DNA of 64,000 nt from Accumulibacter sp. (GCF_036625275.1 NZ_JAZKUD010000006.1:11716-75715); one strand, 5' to 3'; positions 33,654 through 44,997 are shown, counted from the stretch's first letter. Program-made: numbers and translations. Notes: generated from the sequence alone by a model not told the origin.

Positions 33654-33674
33654 GGATTCCATAGTCTCACTGAA

Positions 33675-33758
33675 AAGGGCAAACCCGTCGAAAGGCGGGG
33701 ACGCAAAGTCACCGATCTAACGGAAACGGCATGTTTCCCAGGATGGCGGGGCCGCCAG
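33675..33758 (+). ncRNA. Cyclic di-GMP-I (GEMM) riboswitch
   Basis: GGCAAACCCGTC-GAAA-GGCGGG-GACGCAAAG..CCGATCTAA...ATGGCGGGGCCGCC fits the consensus: GNRA tetraloop, receptor-type P2 and closing P1. Confidence 0.9.
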
Positions 33759-33934
33759 GCTAACGGAGACAGCGTCCGGACAAATTCCCCAGTCTTGGTC
33801 GCAGTCGATCCACCTCCAGCCCGTCGGATCTCCAGAAAGTTTCATCTCTGCCCAACGGTTGACCTTGCACCAGCCCGCAGTTTTTGCGGCCAGGCCGTGC
33901 GTCTTTTTGGCGCCAGCGACAAGGAAAACCGACG

Positions 33935-34213
33935 ATGGCATTTCAATTCGACAAGGTAAGCAGCTTTCTCGGTGGCGACCGGTCGGTCGCCAAGCCTGAT
34001 CGTTTCCGTAGGCCTGTTGAAGCACGGACACGCGTGGCCTGGTTGCTGGGGCGACTGGGCGAAGTCAGTGGACTGGCCGTCTGCGCCACACACGCCACAA
34101 TTTCCAAGGTGTTTACCCTCAAGTTCGGCGGCTTGCATGCCGTTGATTCAAGCATACCCTTCGGCAGCTTGCCGTCATGCTTACCATTTAAGCAGCTCTG
34201 GCCAACCACATGA
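33935..34213 (+). CDS. Possible 92-aa leader ORF coupled to pilE
   Basis: AAGGA SD 9 nt before the ATG; the stop overlaps the pilE start (ATGA). No family recognised. Confidence 0.3.
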   Translation: MAFQFDKVSSFLGGDRSVAKPDRFRRPVEARTRVAWLLGRLGEVSGLAVCATHATISKVFTLKFGGLHAVDSSIPFGSLPSCLPFKQLWPTT

Positions 34214-34638
34214 AAGCGAATTCCGGATTCACCCTGATCGAGGTGATCAGCGTCATCGCGATCATCAGTATTCTGGCGGCGATCGCCGTTCCAAATTACA
34301 TCGACTATCTGACCAAGGGGCGGATCACCGAGGCGGTTGGTGCGCTCGCCAGTATGGAGGTCAGGATGCAACAGCATTTCCTCGATGAGCGTACCTATGT
34401 CGGGGCCTGTGCGGCCGGTACGGTGGCACCTCTGCCGACCAATACCAGCAATTTCACGTTTACATGCTCCGGTCTTGGCGCGGCGGCTTATCAGGTGGAT
34501 GCCACCGGGAAGAGCAGCATGGCGGGCTTTCAATACCGGATTACAGCGGCTGGCAAAAGCACGGTTGCCCTGCCAAGTGGCTGGACTCTCCCGAGTCCGA
34601 ATACCTGCTTCGCGCTGAATAAAGCCGGGGGGTGTTGA
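34210..34638 (+). CDS. pilE: Type IV minor pilin PilE
   Basis: Prepilin site G/FTLIEV followed by A.IA.PNY..Y..K.R..EA. Confidence 0.9.
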   Translation: MKANSGFTLIEVISVIAIISILAAIAVPNYIDYLTKGRITEAVGALASMEVRMQQHFLDERTYVGACAAGTVAPLPTNTSNFTFTCSGLGAAAYQVDATGKSSMAGFQYRITAAGKSTVALPSGWTLPSPNTCFALNKAGGC

Positions 34639-34641
34639 GCG

Positions 34642-35121
34642 ATGTTGGGCCATCCGCGTGGATTCACCATGGTCGAAGTTCTGGTGGTCATTACCATCCT
34701 GAGCGTTCTGCTGGCGTTTGGCGTTCCGGCCCTCGGTACCTATACGGGAAATGTCCGTCTGCGGACGGCCGCGGAAAAGGTCCTTGCCGACCTGCAGAGG
34801 GCTCGCAGCGAAGCCATTCGCCTGAACAGCAATTCCCCGCCGTTCTTTCCCTCGGAGACGCCAGCTTCGGTGGTGATCACCAGCAGCGTGAACGACAGTA
34901 GCGGTGGGCATGATCTCGTGTTCACTCCGTTCGGTGGAACCACCCTGGCGTCTACCGCGGTGTACACCTTCACCAATCCGGTTGCCGGGGCCTGCCATGC
35001 GGATGGTGGCCCGATACGCTGCCTGAATGTTTTTATAACCACGGGTGGCGGGGCTCGCCTGTGCGACCCCGGCCTGACCACCGCTCAAAAAGCGGCGGGT
35101 GATACGAGGGCATGTCCATAA
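34642..35121 (+). CDS. fimT: GspH/FimT family minor pilin
   Basis: G/FTMVEV, A..L.ADLQ.ARSEAI and F.PFG. Confidence 0.85.
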   Translation: MLGHPRGFTMVEVLVVITILSVLLAFGVPALGTYTGNVRLRTAAEKVLADLQRARSEAIRLNSNSPPFFPSETPASVVITSSVNDSSGGHDLVFTPFGGTTLASTAVYTFTNPVAGACHADGGPIRCLNVFITTGGGARLCDPGLTTAQKAAGDTRACP

Positions 35122-35630
35122 TGAAGACTCTTGAACGTTCTCAATCCGGCAGCGTGTTGCTGGAGGCACTGATCGGCATTCTGATCTTTTCTCTGGGCAT
35201 CCTGTCGATGGTGGCGCTGGGAGCCACGGCAGTCAACGTGCAGGCCGATGCACAGTATCGCACCGAGGCGATGAATCTGGCCGAGCGAATCTTGAGCCAG
35301 ATCTGGACCGGAGTCGACCGGACCCAGGAAACCATCAATGGAGTCGTCATGTCCGTGGTGAGCACCAGCTCCCTCAACAATTACCAGCACTTCAGCACTG
35401 GGGACAACTGCGTATTCACCGGGTCGGCTTCGACCATGCCGGCGGTTGTCGACTGGGTCGCCACCTTGCTGCCTACTGGCAAGCCTTCCCCGTTGCCCGG
35501 CTCGACCGCGGGAAGACAGCAAATCAAGGTGGTTCCTGCGAACAACAACCAGGTCAGCATCACGATTTGCTGGCAGACGCCTTCGGATAACAAGGTGCGC
35601 CACTACACCCTGGTGAGCTATGTCAACTGA
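35121..35630 (+). CDS. pilV: Type IV minor pilin PilV
   Basis: G/SVLLEALI..LIFSLGIL; C-terminal V.ITICWQ.P. Confidence 0.85.
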   Translation: MKTLERSQSGSVLLEALIGILIFSLGILSMVALGATAVNVQADAQYRTEAMNLAERILSQIWTGVDRTQETINGVVMSVVSTSSLNNYQHFSTGDNCVFTGSASTMPAVVDWVATLLPTGKPSPLPGSTAGRQQIKVVPANNNQVSITICWQTPSDNKVRHYTLVSYVN

Positions 35631-36732
35631 TTTCCCGCTGCGACGCATCCTGGCGCACAAGAGTGCGCCGATGCGTTTTGGCAGGGGCTTCACGCTGACC
35701 GAGTTGCTGGTCGGCGTGGCGATCGGATTGATCGGCATCATCGCCATGTTCCACGTCCTGTCGACGTGGGACAAGACGAAGCGGACGACCGCTGCCGGGA
35801 GCGATGCACAGATTGCCGGGGCGGTGGGCTTTTTCCGCCTCGAGCGCGATGTCAAGCAGGGAGGCATGGGTTTTGGCATGGCCAAGAGTCCGGTGATGGG
35901 TTGTAACGTTTCCACAGTCGTTAACGCAACGGCCACGACGACGGCACGGACTGCATTCACGTTTCCTCTGGTGCCCGTGAGGATCATTCAGGGGGCCAGT
36001 GGTGCGCCCGACGGCTTGCAGGTGCTTTATGGCAATTCCACCTTCTTCACCGCCGAGCAACCCTTCAAGGCATCCACCAGCACCAGCAAGAAAACCGAGT
36101 CGCGAAATGGTTTCAAGGTGGGTGATGTGGTGGTCGTTTCTGACGGTGCGTCGAATTGTGCGTTGATCGAAGTCTCCAGCGATACCAATGCCGATTTGCT
36201 GACGCTCGACCACAACGGGCTGTTGCGCTTTAAACCCGGTCCGGGAGCGGCCTTCAGTTCCGGCCTCCTTTTCAACATGGGCAAGGAACCCCAGCTCAAC
36301 CTCTGGCAGGTGTCCAATGGGACCCTGGTGCTGACCGATGGCTTGTATCGCAATACCACCATCTCGGTCGCCGACGGGGTGATCGATCTGCAGGCACAGT
36401 ATGGCATCGACAGCGATGGCGACTACAAGGTCGATACCTGGCAGGATGCCGATCCGGCCGACTGGACCCGTCTGCTGGCGGTGCGTGTATCGATCCTGAC
36501 ACGCAGCCAGCAGTATGAGCCCTCGCGCGCCGGCCCCGTTTATGTCACCGCCACGGCGCCGGTCTTGTCCTGGCTGGACAGCAGCAATGCCGCGATCCCC
36601 TTCACCATGAAAAATGTCGACGGTACCGATGACGATAATCCCGACAATGACAACGACTGGCGGAATTATCGCTACCGCGTCTATGGTGGGGTGATTTCCC
36701 TGCGCAACATGGTCTGGGGTCTCTCGCCATGA
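35620..36732 (+). CDS. pilW: Type IV minor pilin PilW
   Basis: G/FTLTELLV; C-terminal LQAQYG.D, VRVSIL.RS and YRY.V....ISLRN. Confidence 0.88.
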   Translation: MSTDFPLRRILAHKSAPMRFGRGFTLTELLVGVAIGLIGIIAMFHVLSTWDKTKRTTAAGSDAQIAGAVGFFRLERDVKQGGMGFGMAKSPVMGCNVSTVVNATATTTARTAFTFPLVPVRIIQGASGAPDGLQVLYGNSTFFTAEQPFKASTSTSKKTESRNGFKVGDVVVVSDGASNCALIEVSSDTNADLLTLDHNGLLRFKPGPGAAFSSGLLFNMGKEPQLNLWQVSNGTLVLTDGLYRNTTISVADGVIDLQAQYGIDSDGDYKVDTWQDADPADWTRLLAVRVSILTRSQQYEPSRAGPVYVTATAPVLSWLDSSNAAIPFTMKNVDGTDDDNPDNDNDWRNYRYRVYGGVISLRNMVWGLSP

Positions 36733-37316
36733 GCACGCTGGCAAGGCCGGCTGCCCTCCATGCAGGTTCGCCGGGCCATCAGCAAGGCATGGTAGTTCTG
36801 ATTGCACTGGTCATGCTGGTCGCCATGACCATGGCCGGTCTGACCATGATGCGCGGGACCGGGACCGGTCTCGGGATTGCCGGCAATCTGGCTTTCAAGC
36901 AGACGGCCACTTCGGTGGCGGATGTCGGTGTGGAAAATGCGATTGCCTGGCTGACCAATCCCCTGCGCACATCCGAGGTTCTCAAGACCGACGACACCGC
37001 CGCCGGCTATTACTCGTCATGGGCGATCGACTTTTCGCCGATGACCTATGACTGGACGAATTCGAAATTGCTCACCGCCGATGACGGTTTGGGAAATGAA
37101 GTGCGATACGTCGTTCATCGTCTCTGCGAGACGGCTGGTCTGGCCCCGAACGCCGTCCTCCAGAAGTGTGCGACGGTGAATACACCCTGTGCAAGTTGTT
37201 CGAAGGGGGGCGATGCCAGTTCGCTGATCGATTCGGTTCAACCCTATTACCGGATCACTTCACGGGTCAGGGGACCGCGAAATACGGTCAGCTATGTCCA
37301 GGTGATCATGTATTAG
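36729..37316 (+). CDS. pilX: Type IV minor pilin PilX
   Basis: G/MVVLIALV (no Glu at +5), IAGN.AFKQ and YYRIT.RV.GPRNT. Confidence 0.88.
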   Translation: MSTLARPAALHAGSPGHQQGMVVLIALVMLVAMTMAGLTMMRGTGTGLGIAGNLAFKQTATSVADVGVENAIAWLTNPLRTSEVLKTDDTAAGYYSSWAIDFSPMTYDWTNSKLLTADDGLGNEVRYVVHRLCETAGLAPNAVLQKCATVNTPCASCSKGGDASSLIDSVQPYYRITSRVRGPRNTVSYVQVIMY

Positions 37317-37434
37317 GAGTGCAGGTGGCCCTGTCAGGGGTTGCCGCGAGTTTAACAAGCATCAGGTCGGGTCCCGCCGGGATTCGATTCGGGTTCAGTA
37401 GTGGCAATGGTCGTTGCTGCCAAGGAGAACTGTC

Positions 37435-40400
37435 ATGGGCGATTTCAGGAAATTGAGAGTGGTTGGTCTCTTGCCAGGCGTATGCCGTGTTCTTGCGGGA
37501 CTGTCCATGATGGTTGCGTTGGGCGTGGCTGATGCCGCATTGACCGATGTGTCCGACGCCCCGTTCTACAATTCCACCTCCTCGCAGCTCAAGCCGAACA
37601 TCATGCTGCTCATGGACACTTCCAACTCGATGCGTTTCTCGCACATGCCGGATCAGATCGAGGGAACCAATAGCGGCTTGATGCCCATCGGTTACAAGAG
37701 TTATCAGTGCAACGTGCTCTATTACAACCCGAACCGGGTTTACGAGATTCCCAAGGATAGCTCGGGGAGTGCCTTGCCGACGCCCAGTTTCACCGCCGCA
37801 CCCTACAATTATTTTTCGACCGATGCGAGCACCAGGAATCTATCCGCCAGTTTCCAGGCTTATGACACCTCGACCCGGCAGTATCAGACGGTCTCGGACC
37901 CCGAACAAGCCGCCTATTACTATCTGCATTCGGTTGCCGGTACGAAGAACTATCTGAATACTCCCTGTACCGATGCGGATGTCGGGGCGACGGTTCCCGC
38001 CGGCGACGGTGGCACGTGGACTCGGGTCCTGGTGTCATCGACCTCGGGACCCGGCGGGGTCGATGAACGGCAGAATTTTGCCAACTGGTACACTTTCTAC
38101 CGGACCCGGATCAGTCTGATCAAAAGCGCCGTCAGCCTCGCCTTCATGCCCTTGACGGACAGCAGTCGTGTCGGTTTCATCACCGTCAATCCCGATCTGA
38201 GCGGCAGCGCCAACTACCTGCCGATCGCCGATTTCAATGCGACGCAGCGAAGCAACTGGTTCAACACGCTGTTCAGCCAGGTGCCGGGCGGATCTTCTCC
38301 TTCGCGTGAGGGACTGGCGCGGGTCGGTCGACACTTTGCCGGCAAGCAGGACGGCATCAACAGTGGCATGAGCGGTGACCCGATCCAGTTTTCGTGCCAG
38401 CAGAATTTCACCATCATGACCACCGACGGTTACTGGAACGTGGCGGCCGAAACCGCTGGTCCGGTGATGATCGACGGGGCGACGCAGGTCGGCCAGCAGG
38501 ATGGCACGCTCGACATCGTGGTCGACAATACCCACTGGACGCAGCGCCCGATGTGGGACGGGGGGGCCGACACCTTGCGCGTGATTACCGACAAGACCAC
38601 CCAGTATCGTTCGGTCATCTGCGTCAGCCCCTACGCCAACCAAACCACCTCGCAGACCCTGCAGAGCACTTCGCAGAATTTGCAGAGCACCACGCAGAAC
38701 CTGCAGAGTACCGCGCAGAACCTGCAAAGCACGCTGCAGAATCTGAAGAGCACCTCGCAACTGACGAAAAGCACCTCGCAGATCACGCAAAGTACGCTGC
38801 AGAACCTGCAAAGCACGTCTCAGAAACTGAAGAGCACCTCGCAACTCACCCGGAGTACCTCACAGCTCACGCAAAGCACCTCGCAGAATCTGAAAAGTAC
38901 AGTGCAAAAATTCAGGAGCACCTCGCAACTTACCCGGAGTACCTCGCAGCTTACGCAAAGCACCTCACAGAACACGCAAAGTACGCTGCAGAACCTGAGA
39001 AGCACTTCTCAGGTCACGAAGAGCACCTCGCAGGCCACGCAAAGCACGTCACAGCTCACGCAAAGTACGCTGCAGAACCTGCAAAGCACTTCCCAGCCCA
39101 CACGGAGCACCTCGCAGATCACGGTCAGCACACTCAAGGCCTATCAGTCGACCAGCCAGATCCTCCAATATGACGCTACCACTGAACTGACCACGCCCGT
39201 GGCAAGCTGCACGCCGGGCGGCAACATTTCCTGCACGACGGTAACCACCGGCCCGACCCTGGTGGCTTCGTGCACGCCCGTGGCGGCTGCAGCAGGCAAC
39301 CTTTATACGGCAACGACCTGCTCCTCTTCGACCACCGGGCCGACCGCCGCGGCTTCGTGTACGCCTGCCAGTGCTTCCGCGGGCAATGGTTACACCACCA
39401 CCACCTGCAACACCGTGACCACCGGGCCAACGCCCGTGGCCAGCTGCACGCCAGCGGCTGCCGATGCCGGCAACAGCTATACGACCACCACCTGCAACAC
39501 CGTGACCACCGGACCCACGCCGGTGTCCACCTGTACGCCGGTGACCGGTGCGGCTGGCAACGGCTATACGACGGTGACCTGTTCGTCCGCGACCACCGGG
39601 CCTACCGGCGTGGCCTCGTGTACGCCAGTGGCCGCTTCTTCCGGCAACAGCTATACGGCCACGACCTGCAACACCGTGACTACCGGACCCACCGGCGTGG
39701 CGTCGTGTACGCCGGTGGCCGCGTCTGCCGGCAACAGCTACACGGCGACGACCTGCAACACCGTGACCACCGGACCCACCGGCGTGGCGTCGTGTACGCC
39801 TGCGGCCGCTTCTTCCGGCAACAGCTATACGGCGACGACCTGCAACACCGTGACCACCGGGCCCACTGCCGTCGCGTCGTGTACGCCCGCGAGCGCTTCT
39901 TCCGGCAATAGCTATACGGCCACAACCTGTTCCACGGCCACCACCGGGCCCACTGCGGTAGCCACTTGTACGCCGGTAGCGGCGTCTTCCGGTAACAGCT
40001 ATACGGCCACGACCTGCGCCACCGTGACCACCGGACCCACCGGCGTGGCGTCGTGTACGCCGGTGGCGGCGTCTGCCGGAAACAGCTACACGGCGACGAC
40101 CTGCAACACCGTGACCACCGGACCCACCGGCGTGGCATCCTGTACACCCGCGACGGCCGCTGCCGGCAACAGCTATACGACCACGACCTGCAACACCGTG
40201 ACCACCGGGCCGACTGCGGTGGCGTCGTGTACGCCTGCGACCGCTTCTTCCAGCAATAGCTATACGACAAGGACCTGTTCGACCGTGACCACCGGGCCTA
40301 CTCCGGTGGCGACGTGTACGCCGGTGTCCGCGTCTTCCGGCAACAGCTATACGGCGACGACCTGTTCGACCGCGACTACCGGGCCGACCGGCGTGGCGAC

Positions 40401-43400
40401 CTGCACGCCGGTGGCGGCGTCTGCCGGCAACAGCTATACCGCCACGACCTGCAACACCCTGACCACCGGACCGACCGGCGTGGCGTCGTGTACGCCGGCG
40501 ACCGCATCTGCCGGCAACAGCTATACGACCACGACCTGCAACACCGTGACCACCGGGCCGACTGCGGTGGCGTCGTGTACGGCCGCGACCGCTTCTTCCA
40601 GCAACAGCTATACGACCACAACCTGCTCGACCGTAGCGACCGGGCCCACCCCGGTGGCCTCCTGTACGCCGGTGTCCGCGTCTTCCGGCAACAGCTATAC
40701 GGCCACCACATGCGCCACCGCGACCAGCGGGCCGACCGGCGTGGCGTCGTGTACGCCGGTGGCCGCGTCTTCCGGCAACAGCTACACGGCCACGACCTGC
40801 AATACCGTGACCACCGGGCCGACTGGCGTGTCGTCGTGTACGCCGGCAACCGCGTCTTCCGGCAACAGCTATACGGCCACGACCTGCAACACCGTGACCA
40901 CCGGGCCAAGCCCTGTGGCTTCCTGTACGCCGGCAGCGGCTTCTTCCGGCAACAGTTATACGGCCACGACCTGCTCGACCGTGGCGACCGGGCCCGCCCC
41001 GGTGGCCACCTGTACGCCGGTGGCCGCATCTTCCGGCAACAGCTACACGGCCACGACCTGTTCGACCGCGAACACCGGGCCCACCCCGGTGGCCACCTGT
41101 ACGCCGATCTCGCCCAGCGCAGGCAATGGGTATACCACCACCACCTGCACGACCACGACCACCGGGCCAAGCGCCGTGGCCACCTGTACGCCGGCGACGG
41201 CGTCTGCCGGCAACGGCTATACGGCGACGACCTGCACCACCGCGACCAGCGGACCCACTCCGGTGGCCTCGTGCACGCCGGCACCGGCAAGTTCGGACAA
41301 TGACTGGGTGACAACCACCTGTGCGCTGGTCGAAACCGGCCCGACCGAAGTGGCGTCCTGTACGCCGGTCTCACCCACTGCACCGGATTACCAAACCACC
41401 ACTTGCGACTATCTGAATGGCCACAAGCTGCAGAAGCGCATTCAGACCGGCGTGACCTCGATCTTCCTGAACGGCGGCATCAGCGGTTTCGAAATCAGCC
41501 GATCGACGACCACCGACGATCCGGATTACGTCGATGTCGACGGTGTCTGTCATCCCGATGCTTCGACACTGGCCGCTCCCTTGGGGCCCGTTCCGGATCC
41601 CGCACGTTCGAGCAGCGATGAAGCGCCACTACCGGCTTCCTGCAGTGAATGGCCGTGTGTCGTGGATTCGACCATTACCGGGGGCAGCAGCAATTCGCTG
41701 GCTGACGTGGCCCAGTACTACTATGTCACCGACTTGCGTCCGGAGTTGACCAACGACGTGCGGGTTGCGGCAACCATCGGTGCCGAAGCGGATCGTGCCA
41801 CTCACCAGCACATGACCACCTTCACCCTGGCGCTCGGTGTGTCCGGCACCCTCAATTACAGTTCAACCTACAAAATCGACACGGTCGGGGATTTTGCGCG
41901 GATTCGTTGCAATCCGCTGAGCGGCGGTTGCAACAATACCTGTCCGGTAACCGATCCGAGCTTCCCGAACTGCACGCCGAAGTCCTGGCCGGTGTGGCCC
42001 GATCCGACCCTCGATTACTCCGATGCCACGCGTTACAGTGACCCGCGGTCGATCGACGATTTCTGGCACACCGCAGTCAATGGCCGCGGGCTTTATTTCA
42101 GCGCCGACGACCCGAATTCGGTGGTCAGTGGGCTCCAGCAGGCGCTGGCAGGCATTCAGTCGCGGCTGGGCGCTGGCTCGGCGGCAGCGACCTCGACCCT
42201 GTCGCCAGTGGCCGGAGACAATGCCGCCTACCGCACCAGCTACGTTTCGCAGGAGTGGGTGGGCGATCTGGCCGCCTATGAAATCAACCCGGCAACCGGC
42301 GTCATGAGCACGACCACGCAGTGGCGATCGCAGCCCTTGCTGGATGCCACGATCGGATCGGCTTGCGACCGGCGGACCATCTATCTCTTCCGCGCCGGTG
42401 CAAGCAACAATCTCACTCCCTTCACCTGGGACACGCGGACCTGTGATGTTGCCGGCCTGCCGACCGGTGACCCCACGACCGGACTGGTGGCGGCGGAGCA
42501 AGCCTATTTCGGGGCGGACAGCGTGGCACAGTTCAGTCAGTATCCGAGCATGTCGGATGGCAGCGGTGCCACGGTCGACCAGCGGACGGCCGCCGCCGGC
42601 GCGAATCTGGTGAACTATCTGCGCGGTCAGCACACGCACGAGGGAACGGCACTGTTTACGACCAATGATCTGACCAAGCTTTACCGTGCCCGCACGCATG
42701 TTCTGGGGGATTTCGTGAACTCCCAGCCGGCTTTCGTCAAGGGGCCCTTCGCCTCCTACGCGGATAGCGGTTATGCCACGTTCAAGAGCGACCATGCCGG
42801 GCGTACGCCGATGATCTACGCAGGCGCCAACGATGGCATGCTGCATGCTTTTGTCGCGGCAAACGGGGCAGAGTCCTGGGCATTCATTCCGAGACTGGTT
42901 CTGCCCAATCTCTTCAAGCTGGCCGACAACAACTATGCCAATACGCACCAGTTCTACGTCGATGGTTCGCCGACAGTGGGTGACATCTATGCCAGTTCCA
43001 CCTGGAAAACGATTCTGGTCGGCGGACTCAACAAGGGCGGCAAGGGTTATTATGCGCTGGACGTGACCGATCCGGCGGCTCCGAAGGCCTTGTGGGAATT
43101 CGGCTGGAGCGACGCGTGTTGGGATGGTGTGACCTCCGGGGTCGGGTCCGACTGCCATCTCGGCTATACCTTTGGCCGCCCGATCATCTCCAAGCTCCAG
43201 AATGGCACCTGGGTGGTCTTCGTGACCTCCGGTGTGAACAATGTCAACAGCCCGGCCAAGGCAGGCGATGGCAACGGCTATCTGTACGTGCTCAATGCCG
43301 ATACCGGCAAGCTGATTGCCAAGATCGCCACCGGTGTCGGCGACGCAGAGACGCCCAGCGGACTCAACCAGATCAATAACTTCGTGGATAACGTGCTGCT

Positions 43401-44166
43401 CAACAACACTTCGCTGCGGGTGTACGGGGTGGATCTGCTGGGCAACGTCTGGCGCTTCGATGTCAATGACAATCTCGATCCCGATGGTCTGGAAGCGACG
43501 CTGCTGGGAACGGCGAAGGACTCGGCGGGTAATCCGCAGCCGATCACGACACGTCCCGAACTGGCGGAAATCGAAGGAAAGCCGTGGGTTTTCATTGGCA
43601 CCGGGCGTTTGCTCGGGCTTGGCGACCTGCCCGATACCAGTACCCAGTCGACGTATGGTTTCAAGGACCCGCTGACCGGATCGCCGGCCTATGCCGACCT
43701 GCGCAGCGTCTTGAATCCCTTGCAGATGACGCAACCTGCAGGCGAGCTTTACCGGACCATTGCCTGTAGCGGGTCTGACGCAGCCTGCGCAGGCACCAAT
43801 GGCTGGGTGGTCGATTTGCCCGAATCCGGCGAGCGGGTCAATATCGATCCAAAACTGCAACTGGGTACGCTGACCTTCGCCAGCAACGTGCCGAGCAACT
43901 CTGCATGCAGTATCGGTGGCCATAGTTGGTTGAATTTCCTGGATTTCCGTACTGGTCTGGCGGTTCCCACCTCACCCAATCTGGCCGCCTCAAGACGTTT
44001 GAACGAAACCCTGGCGGTGGGTCTCAACTTCGTGCGTCTGACCGATGGGCGGATCGTGGTTGACGTGATCGGTTCCGGTGACAAGCCCCCCGAGGTTGTG
44101 GAGCTGCCGGTGCTGACGCCGCCTCCGGCAGGTAAACGCGTGAGCTGGCGTGAGGTGATCAATTGA
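37435..44166 (+). CDS. pilY1: Giant PilY1/PilC pilus adhesin (~2243 aa): vWA-like N-domain, dual repeat insertion, C-terminal beta-propeller
   Basis: Signal-like N-terminus, DTSNS (DxSxS) and TTDG; C-terminal LGDFVNSQP, YAGANDGMLHAF, FYVDGSP, KTILVGGLNKGG, DLLGNVWRFD and GWVVDLP..GERV. Confidence 0.93.
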   Translation: MGDFRKLRVVGLLPGVCRVLAGLSMMVALGVADAALTDVSDAPFYNSTSSQLKPNIMLLMDTSNSMRFSHMPDQIEGTNSGLMPIGYKSYQCNVLYYNPNRVYEIPKDSSGSALPTPSFTAAPYNYFSTDASTRNLSASFQAYDTSTRQYQTVSDPEQAAYYYLHSVAGTKNYLNTPCTDADVGATVPAGDGGTWTRVLVSSTSGPGGVDERQNFANWYTFYRTRISLIKSAVSLAFMPLTDSSRVGFITVNPDLSGSANYLPIADFNATQRSNWFNTLFSQVPGGSSPSREGLARVGRHFAGKQDGINSGMSGDPIQFSCQQNFTIMTTDGYWNVAAETAGPVMIDGATQVGQQDGTLDIVVDNTHWTQRPMWDGGADTLRVITDKTTQYRSVICVSPYANQTTSQTLQSTSQNLQSTTQNLQSTAQNLQSTLQNLKSTSQLTKSTSQITQSTLQNLQSTSQKLKSTSQLTRSTSQLTQSTSQNLKSTVQKFRSTSQLTRSTSQLTQSTSQNTQSTLQNLRSTSQVTKSTSQATQSTSQLTQSTLQNLQSTSQPTRSTSQITVSTLKAYQSTSQILQYDATTELTTPVASCTPGGNISCTTVTTGPTLVASCTPVAAAAGNLYTATTCSSSTTGPTAAASCTPASASAGNGYTTTTCNTVTTGPTPVASCTPAAADAGNSYTTTTCNTVTTGPTPVSTCTPVTGAAGNGYTTVTCSSATTGPTGVASCTPVAASSGNSYTATTCNTVTTGPTGVASCTPVAASAGNSYTATTCNTVTTGPTGVASCTPAAASSGNSYTATTCNTVTTGPTAVASCTPASASSGNSYTATTCSTATTGPTAVATCTPVAASSGNSYTATTCATVTTGPTGVASCTPVAASAGNSYTATTCNTVTTGPTGVASCTPATAAAGNSYTTTTCNTVTTGPTAVASCTPATASSSNSYTTRTCSTVTTGPTPVATCTPVSASSGNSYTATTCSTATTGPTGVATCTPVAASAGNSYTATTCNTLTTGPTGVASCTPATASAGNSYTTTTCNTVTTGPTAVASCTAATASSSNSYTTTTCSTVATGPTPVASCTPVSASSGNSYTATTCATATSGPTGVASCTPVAASSGNSYTATTCNTVTTGPTGVSSCTPATASSGNSYTATTCNTVTTGPSPVASCTPAAASSGNSYTATTCSTVATGPAPVATCTPVAASSGNSYTATTCSTANTGPTPVATCTPISPSAGNGYTTTTCTTTTTGPSAVATCTPATASAGNGYTATTCTTATSGPTPVASCTPAPASSDNDWVTTTCALVETGPTEVASCTPVSPTAPDYQTTTCDYLNGHKLQKRIQTGVTSIFLNGGISGFEISRSTTTDDPDYVDVDGVCHPDASTLAAPLGPVPDPARSSSDEAPLPASCSEWPCVVDSTITGGSSNSLADVAQYYYVTDLRPELTNDVRVAATIGAEADRATHQHMTTFTLALGVSGTLNYSSTYKIDTVGDFARIRCNPLSGGCNNTCPVTDPSFPNCTPKSWPVWPDPTLDYSDATRYSDPRSIDDFWHTAVNGRGLYFSADDPNSVVSGLQQALAGIQSRLGAGSAAATSTLSPVAGDNAAYRTSYVSQEWVGDLAAYEINPATGVMSTTTQWRSQPLLDATIGSACDRRTIYLFRAGASNNLTPFTWDTRTCDVAGLPTGDPTTGLVAAEQAYFGADSVAQFSQYPSMSDGSGATVDQRTAAAGANLVNYLRGQHTHEGTALFTTNDLTKLYRARTHVLGDFVNSQPAFVKGPFASYADSGYATFKSDHAGRTPMIYAGANDGMLHAFVAANGAESWAFIPRLVLPNLFKLADNNYANTHQFYVDGSPTVGDIYASSTWKTILVGGLNKGGKGYYALDVTDPAAPKALWEFGWSDACWDGVTSGVGSDCHLGYTFGRPIISKLQNGTWVVFVTSGVNNVNSPAKAGDGNGYLYVLNADTGKLIAKIATGVGDAETPSGLNQINNFVDNVLLNNTSLRVYGVDLLGNVWRFDVNDNLDPDGLEATLLGTAKDSAGNPQPITTRPELAEIEGKPWVFIGTGRLLGLGDLPDTSTQSTYGFKDPLTGSPAYADLRSVLNPLQMTQPAGELYRTIACSGSDAACAGTNGWVVDLPESGERVNIDPKLQLGTLTFASNVPSNSACSIGGHSWLNFLDFRTGLAVPTSPNLAASRRLNETLAVGLNFVRLTDGRIVVDVIGSGDKPPEVVELPVLTPPPAGKRVSWREVIN
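38641..39165 (+). repeat. 25 x 21-bp coding tandem array (7 aa, [Q/K/R]STxQxx) within pilY1
   Basis: Units counted by hand from QTTSQTL (38641) to QSTSQIL (ends 39165); no indels. Confidence 0.95.
39244..41415 (+). repeat. 25 x 87-bp coding tandem array (29 aa, TTGPTxVASCTPxxASxGNSYTxTTCxTV) within pilY1
   Basis: Exact 87-bp phasing: unit 1 at 39244, unit 25 at 41332. Cys at positions 10 and 26 of units 1-24; unit 25 is one residue shorter. Confidence 0.95.
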
Positions 44167-44178
44167 GGCTCGCGTTTG

Positions 44179-44997
44179 ATGGTCAGGATCTCGATGAATG
44201 GATTGCTTGAGTGCTGGCGTTCGGAAATTCGGGCACCAGAGAACCGTTATCTGTGGGCAGCGCTGGCTTGCTCGTTCGGCCTGCACATCCTGTTGATGCT
44301 GTTCACCAGCGGCGCCGGACGCTCGGACGGGGTAAGCCTGTTTCCTCCTTCTGCCGCTCGTTCGGCACCGATCTTGCTGATGGCGAGTCTTGCGGAGTTC
44401 CGTCGGGCCAGTGTTTCAGAGCCTGCGGAGCCGCATACCTCCGAGGTTCCTGAACCTTTAGCGCAGATCCAGGAATCACCAGCCAGTATCGCCCCGACCA
44501 TCATGCAGGAGGTCCCGAAGGAGACGCGTCCTCCTGATCGCCATGGTGCGGCGAACTCATCGGGATCACCGGAGTCTTCGGCACGTGCGGAAGCGGTTCC
44601 GACTGCCGCGCGGCACGCCGCGAGCGCCGAGCAGGCCCGCGCCGACGAGGATGCTGCTCGCCTTGCCCGGCACGCAAGCTATGGGCTGGCCAGCCTGCTG
44701 GATGTGCCGCCGGTGCCCTTGTCAGACATTCAACCGGAGTATCCGGAGTCGGCCGGGAATCAACAGGGGACGGTCGTCTTGCGACTCTTCATCAGCGCCA
44801 GCGGCGATGTGGATGAACTTTTCGTCGTCCGTGCATTGCCGAGCGGTTTTTTCGAGGAGGCGGCACTGACGGCATTCGCGTCAGCGCGCTTCTCGCCAGG
44901 CATGCACCATGGTCGTGCGGTCAAGAGCCAGATGGCGGTGGAGGTACAGTTCGTTCCCTTCAACCGGGGCGCCGGCGTTTCCGGAAGAGGGTATTAG
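44179..44997 (+). CDS. TonB family protein (N-terminal TM, Pro/Ala linker, TonB C-terminal domain)
   Basis: ALACSFGLHILL; P.YPE.A...G.V.L...I...G.V and FEEAAL.A....RF.PG. Confidence 0.85.
   Translation: MVRISMNGLLECWRSEIRAPENRYLWAALACSFGLHILLMLFTSGAGRSDGVSLFPPSAARSAPILLMASLAEFRRASVSEPAEPHTSEVPEPLAQIQESPASIAPTIMQEVPKETRPPDRHGAANSSGSPESSARAEAVPTAARHAASAEQARADEDAARLARHASYGLASLLDVPPVPLSDIQPEYPESAGNQQGTVVLRLFISASGDVDELFVVRALPSGFFEEAALTAFASARFSPGMHHGRAVKSQMAVEVQFVPFNRGAGVSGRGY

Follow-up and report, generated by a model that had tools for sequence, protein, structure and literature searches.

Two Repeat Arrays of Matched Number in an Accumulibacter PilY1 Are Predicted To Form a Disulfide-Stapled Beta Hairpin Rod

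The pilY1 gene of an Accumulibacter sp. genome, contained in the 64,000-nucleotide stretch of DNA analyzed here (GCF_036625275.1, NZ_JAZKUD010000006.1:11716-75715; this whole stretch is referred to as the window, and all positions are counted from its first letter), raises the question of why a putative pilus tip adhesin should carry two different tandem repeat arrays, one of 7-residue and one of 29-residue units, which have the same number of repeats and sequence variants that match in mirror order. A preliminary description of this DNA had proposed that the two arrays zip together into an antiparallel, disulfide-bonded hairpin stalk. On the basis of copy numbers in homologs, family-wide covariation, and structure prediction, we consider it very likely that the arrays pair within one chain as a three-stranded antiparallel beta ribbon, i.e., a disulfide-stapled hairpin rod set in the predicted vWA domain of PilY1.

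Translation of the open frame bore out the order and positions of 25 heptads (H1 to H25), a Cys-containing turn, and 25 units of 29 amino acids (aa) (R1 to R25) reported in the preliminary description (Table 1). The whole insert (38554 to 41724) comprises approximately 950 to 1,000 residues and is sited within a loop at the surface of the predicted vWA domain. The heptads follow the consensus S-T-S-Q-x-x-x, are rich in Ser, Thr, and Gln, and hold one or two aliphatic residues at most. Besides the Cys-containing turn itself, we found that the tip holds a shortened R unit: a tight turn (Q-YDATTE-LTTP) is followed by VASC-TPGGNIS-C-TTV, with Cys599 and Cys607, and this shortened 26th R unit (ASC-x7-C) inside the turn brings the Cys run to 52 Cys residues. 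Both Cys residues of the tip were invariant in 20 homologs and E591, the Glu of YDATTE, was nearly invariant; the turn ranks among the best-conserved parts of the insert; the Cys residues of the R units were likewise invariant across homologs. Two types of turn occur in the homologs: type A reads Y-D-x-x-T-E ... ASC-x7-C, and in type B a Cys replaces the Tyr and a second Cys follows seven residues later, which would provide one more disulfide across the tip. Furthermore, Tandem Repeats Finder detected both arrays with a 4-unit higher-order period, i.e., 84 bp in the H array and 348 bp in the R array.

The mirror-order match within this one sequence was evaluated by scoring two binary residue features over all registers in both directions (50 registers). 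The antiparallel register H(i)-R(25-i) was the best of the 50, with 22 of 24 and 23 of 24 matches, versus 20 of 25 and 18 of 25 in the parallel register 0. The three correspondences listed in the preliminary description were reproduced: an aliphatic residue at heptad position 6 coincides with Gly at R position 6 in all 17 core pairs from H5 to H21 (feature a; 22 of 24 overall), Thr at heptad position 7 coincides with Asn at R position 27 in 23 of 24 pairs (feature b; 7 mismatches in the parallel register 0), and Lys at heptad position 6 is found solely in H9 and H13 and Ser at R position 18 solely in R16 and R12. These feature patterns are strongly periodic and correlated inside each array. 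A full shuffle gave P values of 1e-4 and 1e-3, and a permutation of the R pattern that preserves run lengths, and hence the 4-unit periodicity, gave P values of 0.02 for feature a and 0.07 for feature b. Because of the latter result, the mirror pattern of this sequence, taken without its relatives, is no more than suggestive. No inverted repeats between the two arrays were found at the DNA level, and a DNA-level origin of the mirror order was rejected for this reason.

A search with the insert returned 285 homologs at an E value of 1e-3 or less. The named ones were annotated as PilC/PilY or PilY1, and the PilY1 Pfam domain was present in all but one of the 120 matches listed. Named carriers among the matches were Accumulibacter, Caldimonas, Rhodoferax, Variovorax, and other Burkholderiales, and scans of genomes and metagenome contigs yielded 154 further loci, including ones from Comamonas, Xylophilus, Polaromonas, Dechloromonas, Rhizobacter, and Sulfuritalea. 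Approximately 26 of the scanned loci were PilY1 genes without the insert. The span from TTDGYW to SLADVAQYY is about 34 to 154 aa in PilY1s without H/R arrays, versus 1,085 aa here; the arrays thus constitute an insert in a vWA loop, and both of its ends must meet.

We tallied heptads and units in 155 nonredundant homologs, with a correction for the two turn types and with three nonrepeat Cys residues downstream set aside. The heptad count equaled the unit count in 110 homologs and was within one of it in 143, the remaining 12 showing a larger difference. The two copy numbers were coupled with a Pearson r of 0.95, and the span grew by 36.8 aa per unit pair, close to the 36 (7 + 29) expected. 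Matched classes were 17:17, 21:21, 25:25, 28:28, 29:29, 32:32, 33:33, 41:41, and 49:49, and a 9:9 class probably exists as well. The 17:17 class takes in Comamonas isolates and a complete Comamonas genome, and 25:25 is the majority class, including the diverged arrays of Variovorax and Rhodoferax lacus. Matched counts were also seen on very long contigs or complete genomes (L042, 33:33; L072, approximately 18:17; P0002; P0008; and P0103). The equality of H and R numbers in homologs, which the preliminary description had named as a check on its hairpin, was thus kept across 17 to 49 units. An apparent second copy-number series, offset by three units in the raw comparison of the Cys-free gap with the Cys number, dissolved when the two extra Cys residues of the type B turn were taken into account.

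The members of a size class are dispersed over the tree of the nonrepeat C terminus. In four pairs of sister taxa (P0033/P0085, P0027/L060, P0077/L118, and P0062/L138), each array differs by exactly 8 between the partners, further switches occur within clades (17/33/25, 33/49, and 25:25 nested in 33:33), and the present protein (P0001, 25:25) adjoins P0002 from "Ca. Accumulibacter contiguus" (33:33). Many independent, concerted changes of both arrays are visible on this tree. Besides, the unit number equals 4k+1 (17, 21, 25, 29, 33, 41, or 49) in 119 of the 143 matched homologs. Counted from the turn, units 5, 9, 13, and 17 are those in which Gly at R position 6 recurs, a 4-unit superperiod phased to the turn.

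Heptads and units were numbered from the turn so that the size classes could be pooled, and mutual information between the 7 heptad and 29 unit positions was computed at every offset and in both directions for 110 homologs, the z values being measured against the other 23 registers as background. Only two offsets stood out, both of them antiparallel: r = h-1, which is equivalent to H(i)-R(25-i), with z values of up to 18 (H5/H6-R27 and H7-R7) and 16 (H6-R6), and r = h, with z values of up to 10. Offsets -2 and +1 were flat (|z| of 2 or less), and no background register rose above 4.8. The comparison of all register shifts thus singled out exactly the pairing that had been proposed from the single sequence. 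There was no echo of the covariation four units away, indicating that the higher-order repeat is not its cause. In a column-wise test across orthologous units, which involves no pooling along the array, the predicted partner ranked top of 25 in 11 of 24 heptads, where 1 would be expected by chance. Contingency tables revealed complementary changes, namely, Leu with Pro or Ala, Thr with Gly, and Ser or Arg with Leu.

The coupled pairs step residue by residue (H6-R27, H5-R28, H4-R29, H3-R1, H2-R2, and H1-R3), as expected of antiparallel strands, and further couplings mark the opposite side (H3-R23, H2-R24, H1-R25, and H5/6-R6). The whole of heptad h lies opposite positions 27 to 29 of R(h-1) followed by positions 1 to 4 of R(h). 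In addition, the first half of heptad h couples to positions 22 to 25 of R(h), and its second half couples to positions 3 to 9 of R(h-1). If the R strand is taken to consist of positions 22 to 29 of one unit and 1 to 6 of the next, this map fits strands of 14 residues, staggered by 7 residues, on both sides of a central strand.

A matching pattern of strands appeared in an AlphaFold2 (AF2) prediction of the central hairpin (38980 to 39939, comprising H17 to H25, the turn, and R1 to R8; 62 sequences), for which the mean predicted local distance difference test (pLDDT) score was 95.2 and all five models reached at least 91.4. Residues 5 to 65 of the fragment form one continuous strand that passes through nine heptads into the Tyr-Asp of the turn (pLDDT, 93 to 98), followed by a four-residue reversal in coil (66 to 69) and a short return strand (70 to 73). 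Each R unit provides one strand of 13 to 15 residues (positions 22 to 29 plus 1 to 6 of the next unit; fragment residues 110 to 123, 139 to 152, and so on; pLDDT, 92 to 97), and the loops between them show an isolated bridge near position 13 and a three-residue helix at positions 17 to 19. The fragment model agrees with the strand map derived from covariation. A coiled coil or disordered linker, either of which the preliminary description had regarded as fatal to its proposal, was not borne out for the heptads in this model, and an alpha-helical coiled coil was rejected on the composition as well, as hydrophobic a and d positions are absent. A beta-solenoid is also disfavored as the main model of the R array: the fragment model and the stagger of seven residues per unit argue against it, and a rise of 4.8 Å per unit would not match seven partner residues per unit. 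Foldseek searches of the Protein Data Bank (PDB) with the fragment model and with a model of the whole insert gave no significant match; the top hits of the former were the lysenin pore and secretin hairpins (E, at least 0.18; TM score, approximately 0.1), and those of the latter, a low-confidence model, were beta-helices (E, at least 0.26).

We propose the following architecture for the rod. The 25 heptads, about 175 residues in all, would extend outward in one unbroken beta strand, the chain would reverse at the tight YDATTE turn, which the small disulfide unit would fix, and the 25 R units would return antiparallel. Each R unit would lay its 14-residue strand along the central strand. Consecutive R strands would be staggered by exactly 7 residues and, as the covariation map and the secondary-structure string suggest, would alternate sides, flanking the central strand on both sides in a three-stranded ribbon in which each heptad contacts three R strands from two adjacent units. 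The 15 residues at R positions 7 to 21 would loop over the central strand and shield the invariant Thr and Gln of the heptad that belongs to the unit, and a Cys10-Cys26 disulfide within the unit most likely staples this loop; an interunit bond from Cys26 to the next Cys10 seems excluded, because four residues cannot fold back along nine of the same strand. As one heptad per unit fixes this geometry, the arrays would be held to the same copy number and their variants to mirror-order pairing. The antiparallel beta-zipper stalk of the preliminary description is thus supported by counts, covariation, and the model, with three strands in place of the two envisaged, and its disulfide-bonded returning modules are better seen as loops crossing the central strand (positions 7 to 21) than as separate modules.

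At approximately 3.3 Å per residue, 175 residues would give a rod of about 58 nm, and rods in the family would range from about 40 to 113 nm (17 to 49 units), mostly in four-unit steps of about 9 nm. We know of no solved structure that combines a strand of this length with a regular series of some 26 disulfides. Our best guess at the function is that of a stiff, length-tunable extension of the pilus tip adhesin with a hydroxyl-rich surface (Thr, Ser, Gln, and Asn), which would lengthen its reach, enlarge the area of contact in attachment, and come under shear load on pilus retraction.

A more far-reaching arrangement is suggested by the loop contacts. Position 7 of heptad h faces Cys26 of unit h-1. 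The partners of loop h are T2 and Q4 in heptad h together with positions 5 and 7 in heptad h+1, all of a single parity. Since each unit advances the strand by an odd number of residues (7) and the loop contacts have a single parity, successive loops would fall on alternate faces, and the returning chain would wind round the central strand. The insert would then represent a new fold class, in which a strand of about 175 residues, to our knowledge far longer than any in solved structures, is sheathed by a second array winding half a turn per 29-residue unit, and we stop just short of calling this probable. The central strand would be topologically threaded through the sleeve, and the near invariance of Thr2 and Gln4 in every heptad would follow from their burial under the loop, if the winding holds. 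Were this true, the tip of a retractile pilus would bear a mechanically interlocked, length-quantized "ruler" (four-unit steps of about 9 nm; n = 4k+1).

Several points weigh against the three-stranded hairpin rod. The picture of this protein and its homologs is drawn wholly from computation, and the function is conjectural. Covariation is blind to whether strands pair within one chain or between chains, and AF2 itself draws on the covariation signal, so that these two lines of evidence overlap in part. The fragment model was read from its secondary-structure string and confidence values only. When AF2 was applied to all 990 aa of the insert with 23 sequences, the mean pLDDT was 50.8, with the heptads unstructured (approximately 20) and the R units alone at 50 to 80; we did not take this model as evidence for either side. 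Besides, the zipper model leaves the 4k+1 rule, the superperiod phased to the turn, the conserved tip, and a few mismatched alleles unaccounted for. Among the twelve homologs that differ by more than one, three (P0007, P0019, and P0104) are most likely collapsed assemblies, because their C termini are identical to those of matched alleles, and three have lost Cys residues. The other six, namely, L068 (25:29), P0054 (33:29), L024, L104, L039, and L051, are unexplained; they come from metagenome-assembled genomes or metagenome contigs and could be assembly errors or real intermediates.

Strand pairing between molecules would leave the same marks in copy number and register-specific covariation: in a domain swap, the R array of one PilY1 molecule would take up the heptad strand of a second one, linking pilus tips or cells, and type IV pili do mediate aggregation. 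The register, however, begins at the turn, where the nearest heptad pairs with the shortened unit some 20 residues away; AF2 folds a single chain as a hairpin with a pLDDT of 95; the turn is among the best-conserved parts of the insert; and both insert ends must reenter the same vWA loop. We therefore hold pairing in trans to be very unlikely. Another reading, which we judge highly improbable, takes the R array as an independent beta-solenoid-like rod and the heptads as a flexible, perhaps glycosylated Ser/Thr/Gln linker, the counts matching because both span the same distance. It draws on the whole-insert AF2 run, in which the heptads came out as coil and the R units as a regular strand pattern, and on the fact that the best, nonsignificant Foldseek matches of that model were beta-helix proteins, although the model itself is of low confidence. 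A solenoid of 25 units at 4.8 Å each would be 12 nm long, a distance that 175 linker residues have no need to match, and both the one-to-one antiparallel covariation at the residue level and the high-confidence hairpin model contradict a linker that makes no contacts.

The mirror match might also be a by-product of the 4-unit higher-order repeats, generated by unequal crossing-over without any physical coupling. Both arrays do have a 4-unit period, and the run-length-preserving null does reach the mirror match of this sequence at P values of 0.02 to 0.07. Such an origin leaves equal or within-one counts over 17 to 49 units in 143 of 155 homologs without an explanation, the pooled covariation has no echo at a four-unit shift, and the signal persists in the diverged arrays of Variovorax and Rhodoferax, which lack DNA-level repeats. 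We rejected it on the grounds of the family-wide covariation and the equal counts, and find it scarcely credible.

Some variants of the insert deserve mention beside the hairpin rod. In two of the mismatched homologs (L068 and P0054), the arrays differ by exactly four units, which may reflect misassembly of near-identical repeats or real intermediate stages in a joint change of length. P0082 and P0086 have an extra aromatic-rich module of about 75 residues (...KWDAFGLANGYSPTFIYNTWTGPGRPYASQYDPQPGTATYPGAGWYVQNNYT...) between the two Cys residues of one R unit, roughly two-thirds along the R array; it disrupted the counting of the Cys run, giving these two an apparent mismatch, and it is possibly a binding module that the rod presents on its flank. 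Other PilY1s carry shorter, different inserts at the same vWA site (L046, L047, L054, and L055 from Sulfuritalea; L031, L109, L116, and L121; and L038, L040, and L124), among them a Gln/Arg-rich stretch followed by Trp-containing Cys units and a segment of about 115 aa with two to four Cys residues. These inserts may be related to the zipper or be its precursors.

The gene itself is listed from a TTG, and its true start may be the Met 7 codons 3' of it. The minor-pilin genes lie directly 5' of pilY1 on the same strand, the arrangement of a fimU-pilVWXY1-type cluster. The first of them (34210 to 34638, plus strand) has a match to ComP_DUS, the DNA-uptake-sequence receptor pilin (PF16732; E, 3e-10), in addition to an N-methyl motif. 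A gene for a protein with a TonB C-terminal domain (PF03544; E, 6e-13) occupies 44176 to 44997 on the plus strand and starts 10 bases past the pilY1 stop. Since a cyclic di-GMP (c-di-GMP) riboswitch precedes the minor-pilin/pilY1 operon, the entire adhesin operon is probably read by c-di-GMP. An insert-free homolog matched the solved PilY1 C-terminal domain (PDB 3HX6; E, 4.8e-44). TTDGYW is the last conserved landmark 5' of the insert, and the vWA domain of PilY1 has been described as having a DxSxS metal ion-dependent adhesion site (MIDAS) plus a noncontiguous T and D within TTDG (PMC9210963). The Pfam VWA model gave no match in the protein at an E value of 0.1 or less, though both motifs are present, and no solved vWA structure was matched by sequence search. 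Judging from the PilY1 propeller, the upstream minor pilins, and the vWA landmarks, we regard the gene as a genuine pilY1 and its predicted product as a true member of the PilY1/PilC family and a type IV pilus tip adhesin. One copy of PilY1 with the insert is present in this genome.

Table 1. Positions of pilY1, its parts, and upstream elements in the window
Feature	Positions	Strand	Basis and remarks
c-di-GMP-I-GGC riboswitch aptamer	33669..33760	+	Rfam RF03167; 66.2 bits versus gathering score of 59; E, 4e-15
Minor-pilin set, five genes	34210..37316	+	N-methyl pilins, one ComP_DUS-like, one GspH-like, a PilW, and two without Pfam match (PF07963, PF16732, PF12019, PF16074)
pilY1	37414..44166	+	Open frame without stops; 2250 aa as listed from TTG
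MIDAS-type DxSxS motif of vWA domain (D68-T-S70-N-S72)	37615..37629	+	D68, S70, S72, and M73 near-invariant in 20 homologs
TTDGYW motif of vWA domain	38419..38436	+	T336, T337, D338, G339, Y340, and W341 invariant in 20 homologs
N-terminal stalk base (WDGGADTLRVITDKTTQYRSVICVSPYAN, Cys403)	38554..38640	+	C403 invariant in 20 homologs; strand predicted with low confidence
H array, 25 exact heptads	38641..39165	+	Translation; Tandem Repeats Finder
Tip	39166..39243	+	Reads Q-YDATTELTTPVASCTPGGNISC-TTV; 26 residues separate the arrays
R array	39244..41415	+	24 units of 29 aa and a last one of 28 aa, two Cys each; TTGPTGVASC TPVAASAGNS YTATTCNTV
C-terminal stalk base, return into vWA	41416..41724	+	NGHKLQKRIQ ... 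three nonrepeat Cys ... GGSSN-SLADVAQYYY; S1428-Y1437 invariant in 20 homologs
PilY1 C-terminal beta-propeller	42703..43671	+	PF05567, aa 1764-2086; E, 1.3e-44; 153 bits versus cutoff of 28.1

If the model of a hairpin rod holds, the insert exemplifies a hitherto undescribed construction of a long, thin rod out of a single chain, with one array templating the other at one heptad per 29-residue unit. It is also a rare natural case of two separate tandem arrays obliged to lengthen and shorten in concert (seen in at least four sister pairs and several clades, mostly in four-unit steps), and hence a clean system for studying length change in repeat proteins under structural constraint. The predicted rod of about 40 to 113 nm is placed on the vWA domain, which in Pseudomonas aeruginosa PilY1 has been linked to the sensing of surfaces under force (PMC9210963). 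In Variovorax paradoxus, a PilY1 paralog, which may or may not carry the insert, is reported to affect swarming and biofilm (PMC3283707). The carriers are Burkholderiales dominant in activated sludge, soil, and freshwater (Accumulibacter, Dechloromonas, Variovorax, Rhodoferax, and Comamonas), and the rod may bear on floc formation and attachment. In protein design, the motif is a candidate module for making rods whose length can be programmed.

The protein shares with the PilY1/PilC family the C-terminal beta-propeller, the N-terminal DxSxS and TTDG motifs, and the position behind minor-pilin genes. Described PilY1s are of about 120 kDa (PMC9210963), whereas the present one has 2250 aa with a two-array vWA insert of about 950 aa. 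The preliminary description had not recognized this repeat family or such an insertion in PilY1s, and our searches concur: in Pfam and NCBIfam scans of the whole protein no model covered the insert, NCBIfam giving no match at all, a PDB sequence search with the insert gave no match, and no description of the insert was found in literature searches. Accordingly, no solved relative was found for the predicted fold. A hairpin profile run against 1.84 billion representatives collected 184 clusters. Among the 71 long ones, 66 had the PilY1 vWA motifs; of the five without them, four had the PilY1 propeller and one, P0131, showed neither; the module thus appears confined to PilY1 in nearly all long clusters.

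Elongated antiparallel sheets without a conventional hydrophobic core also occur in the central three-stranded single-layer sheet of Borrelia OspA and in the hairpins of pore formers and secretins. Those, however, extend over tens of residues, versus 175 in the strand predicted here, and lack a second array that provides staggered flanking strands and stapled crossover loops. The antifreeze protein of Tenebrio is a Thr-rich, disulfide-braced beta-helix with TCT repeats, a 12-residue solenoid in which coils are stacked without a partner strand; its resemblance to the insert is compositional only (a Thr-Cys-Thr strand, regular disulfides, and a flat Thr-rich face). In the "periscope" proteins, such as SasG and Rib-domain proteins, length varies between strains through the number of repeats, which are independently folding domains in a single array, whereas the PilY1 insert has two arrays that change together, mostly in four-unit steps. 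The closest analogy of principle, as the preliminary description had pointed out, is the stalk of antigen I/II (SpaP and SspB) of oral streptococci, where two separate repeat arrays of matched numbers pair antiparallel into a long hairpin on an adhesin. Its stalk is made of an Ala-rich alpha helix wound with a proline-rich polyproline II helix, whereas the PilY1 insert would be all beta with some 26 disulfides; a globular V domain stands at its tip in place of a turn of about 25 residues; and it belongs to a wall-anchored Gram-positive protein, whereas the PilY1 stalk is inserted in a vWA domain, so that the analogy does not extend to the helix types or the V domain. The two have no sequence or fold relation, and what they have in common is the use of two distinct arrays, antiparallel pairing, and matched copy number (equal in 110 and within one in 143 of the 155 PilY1 homologs).

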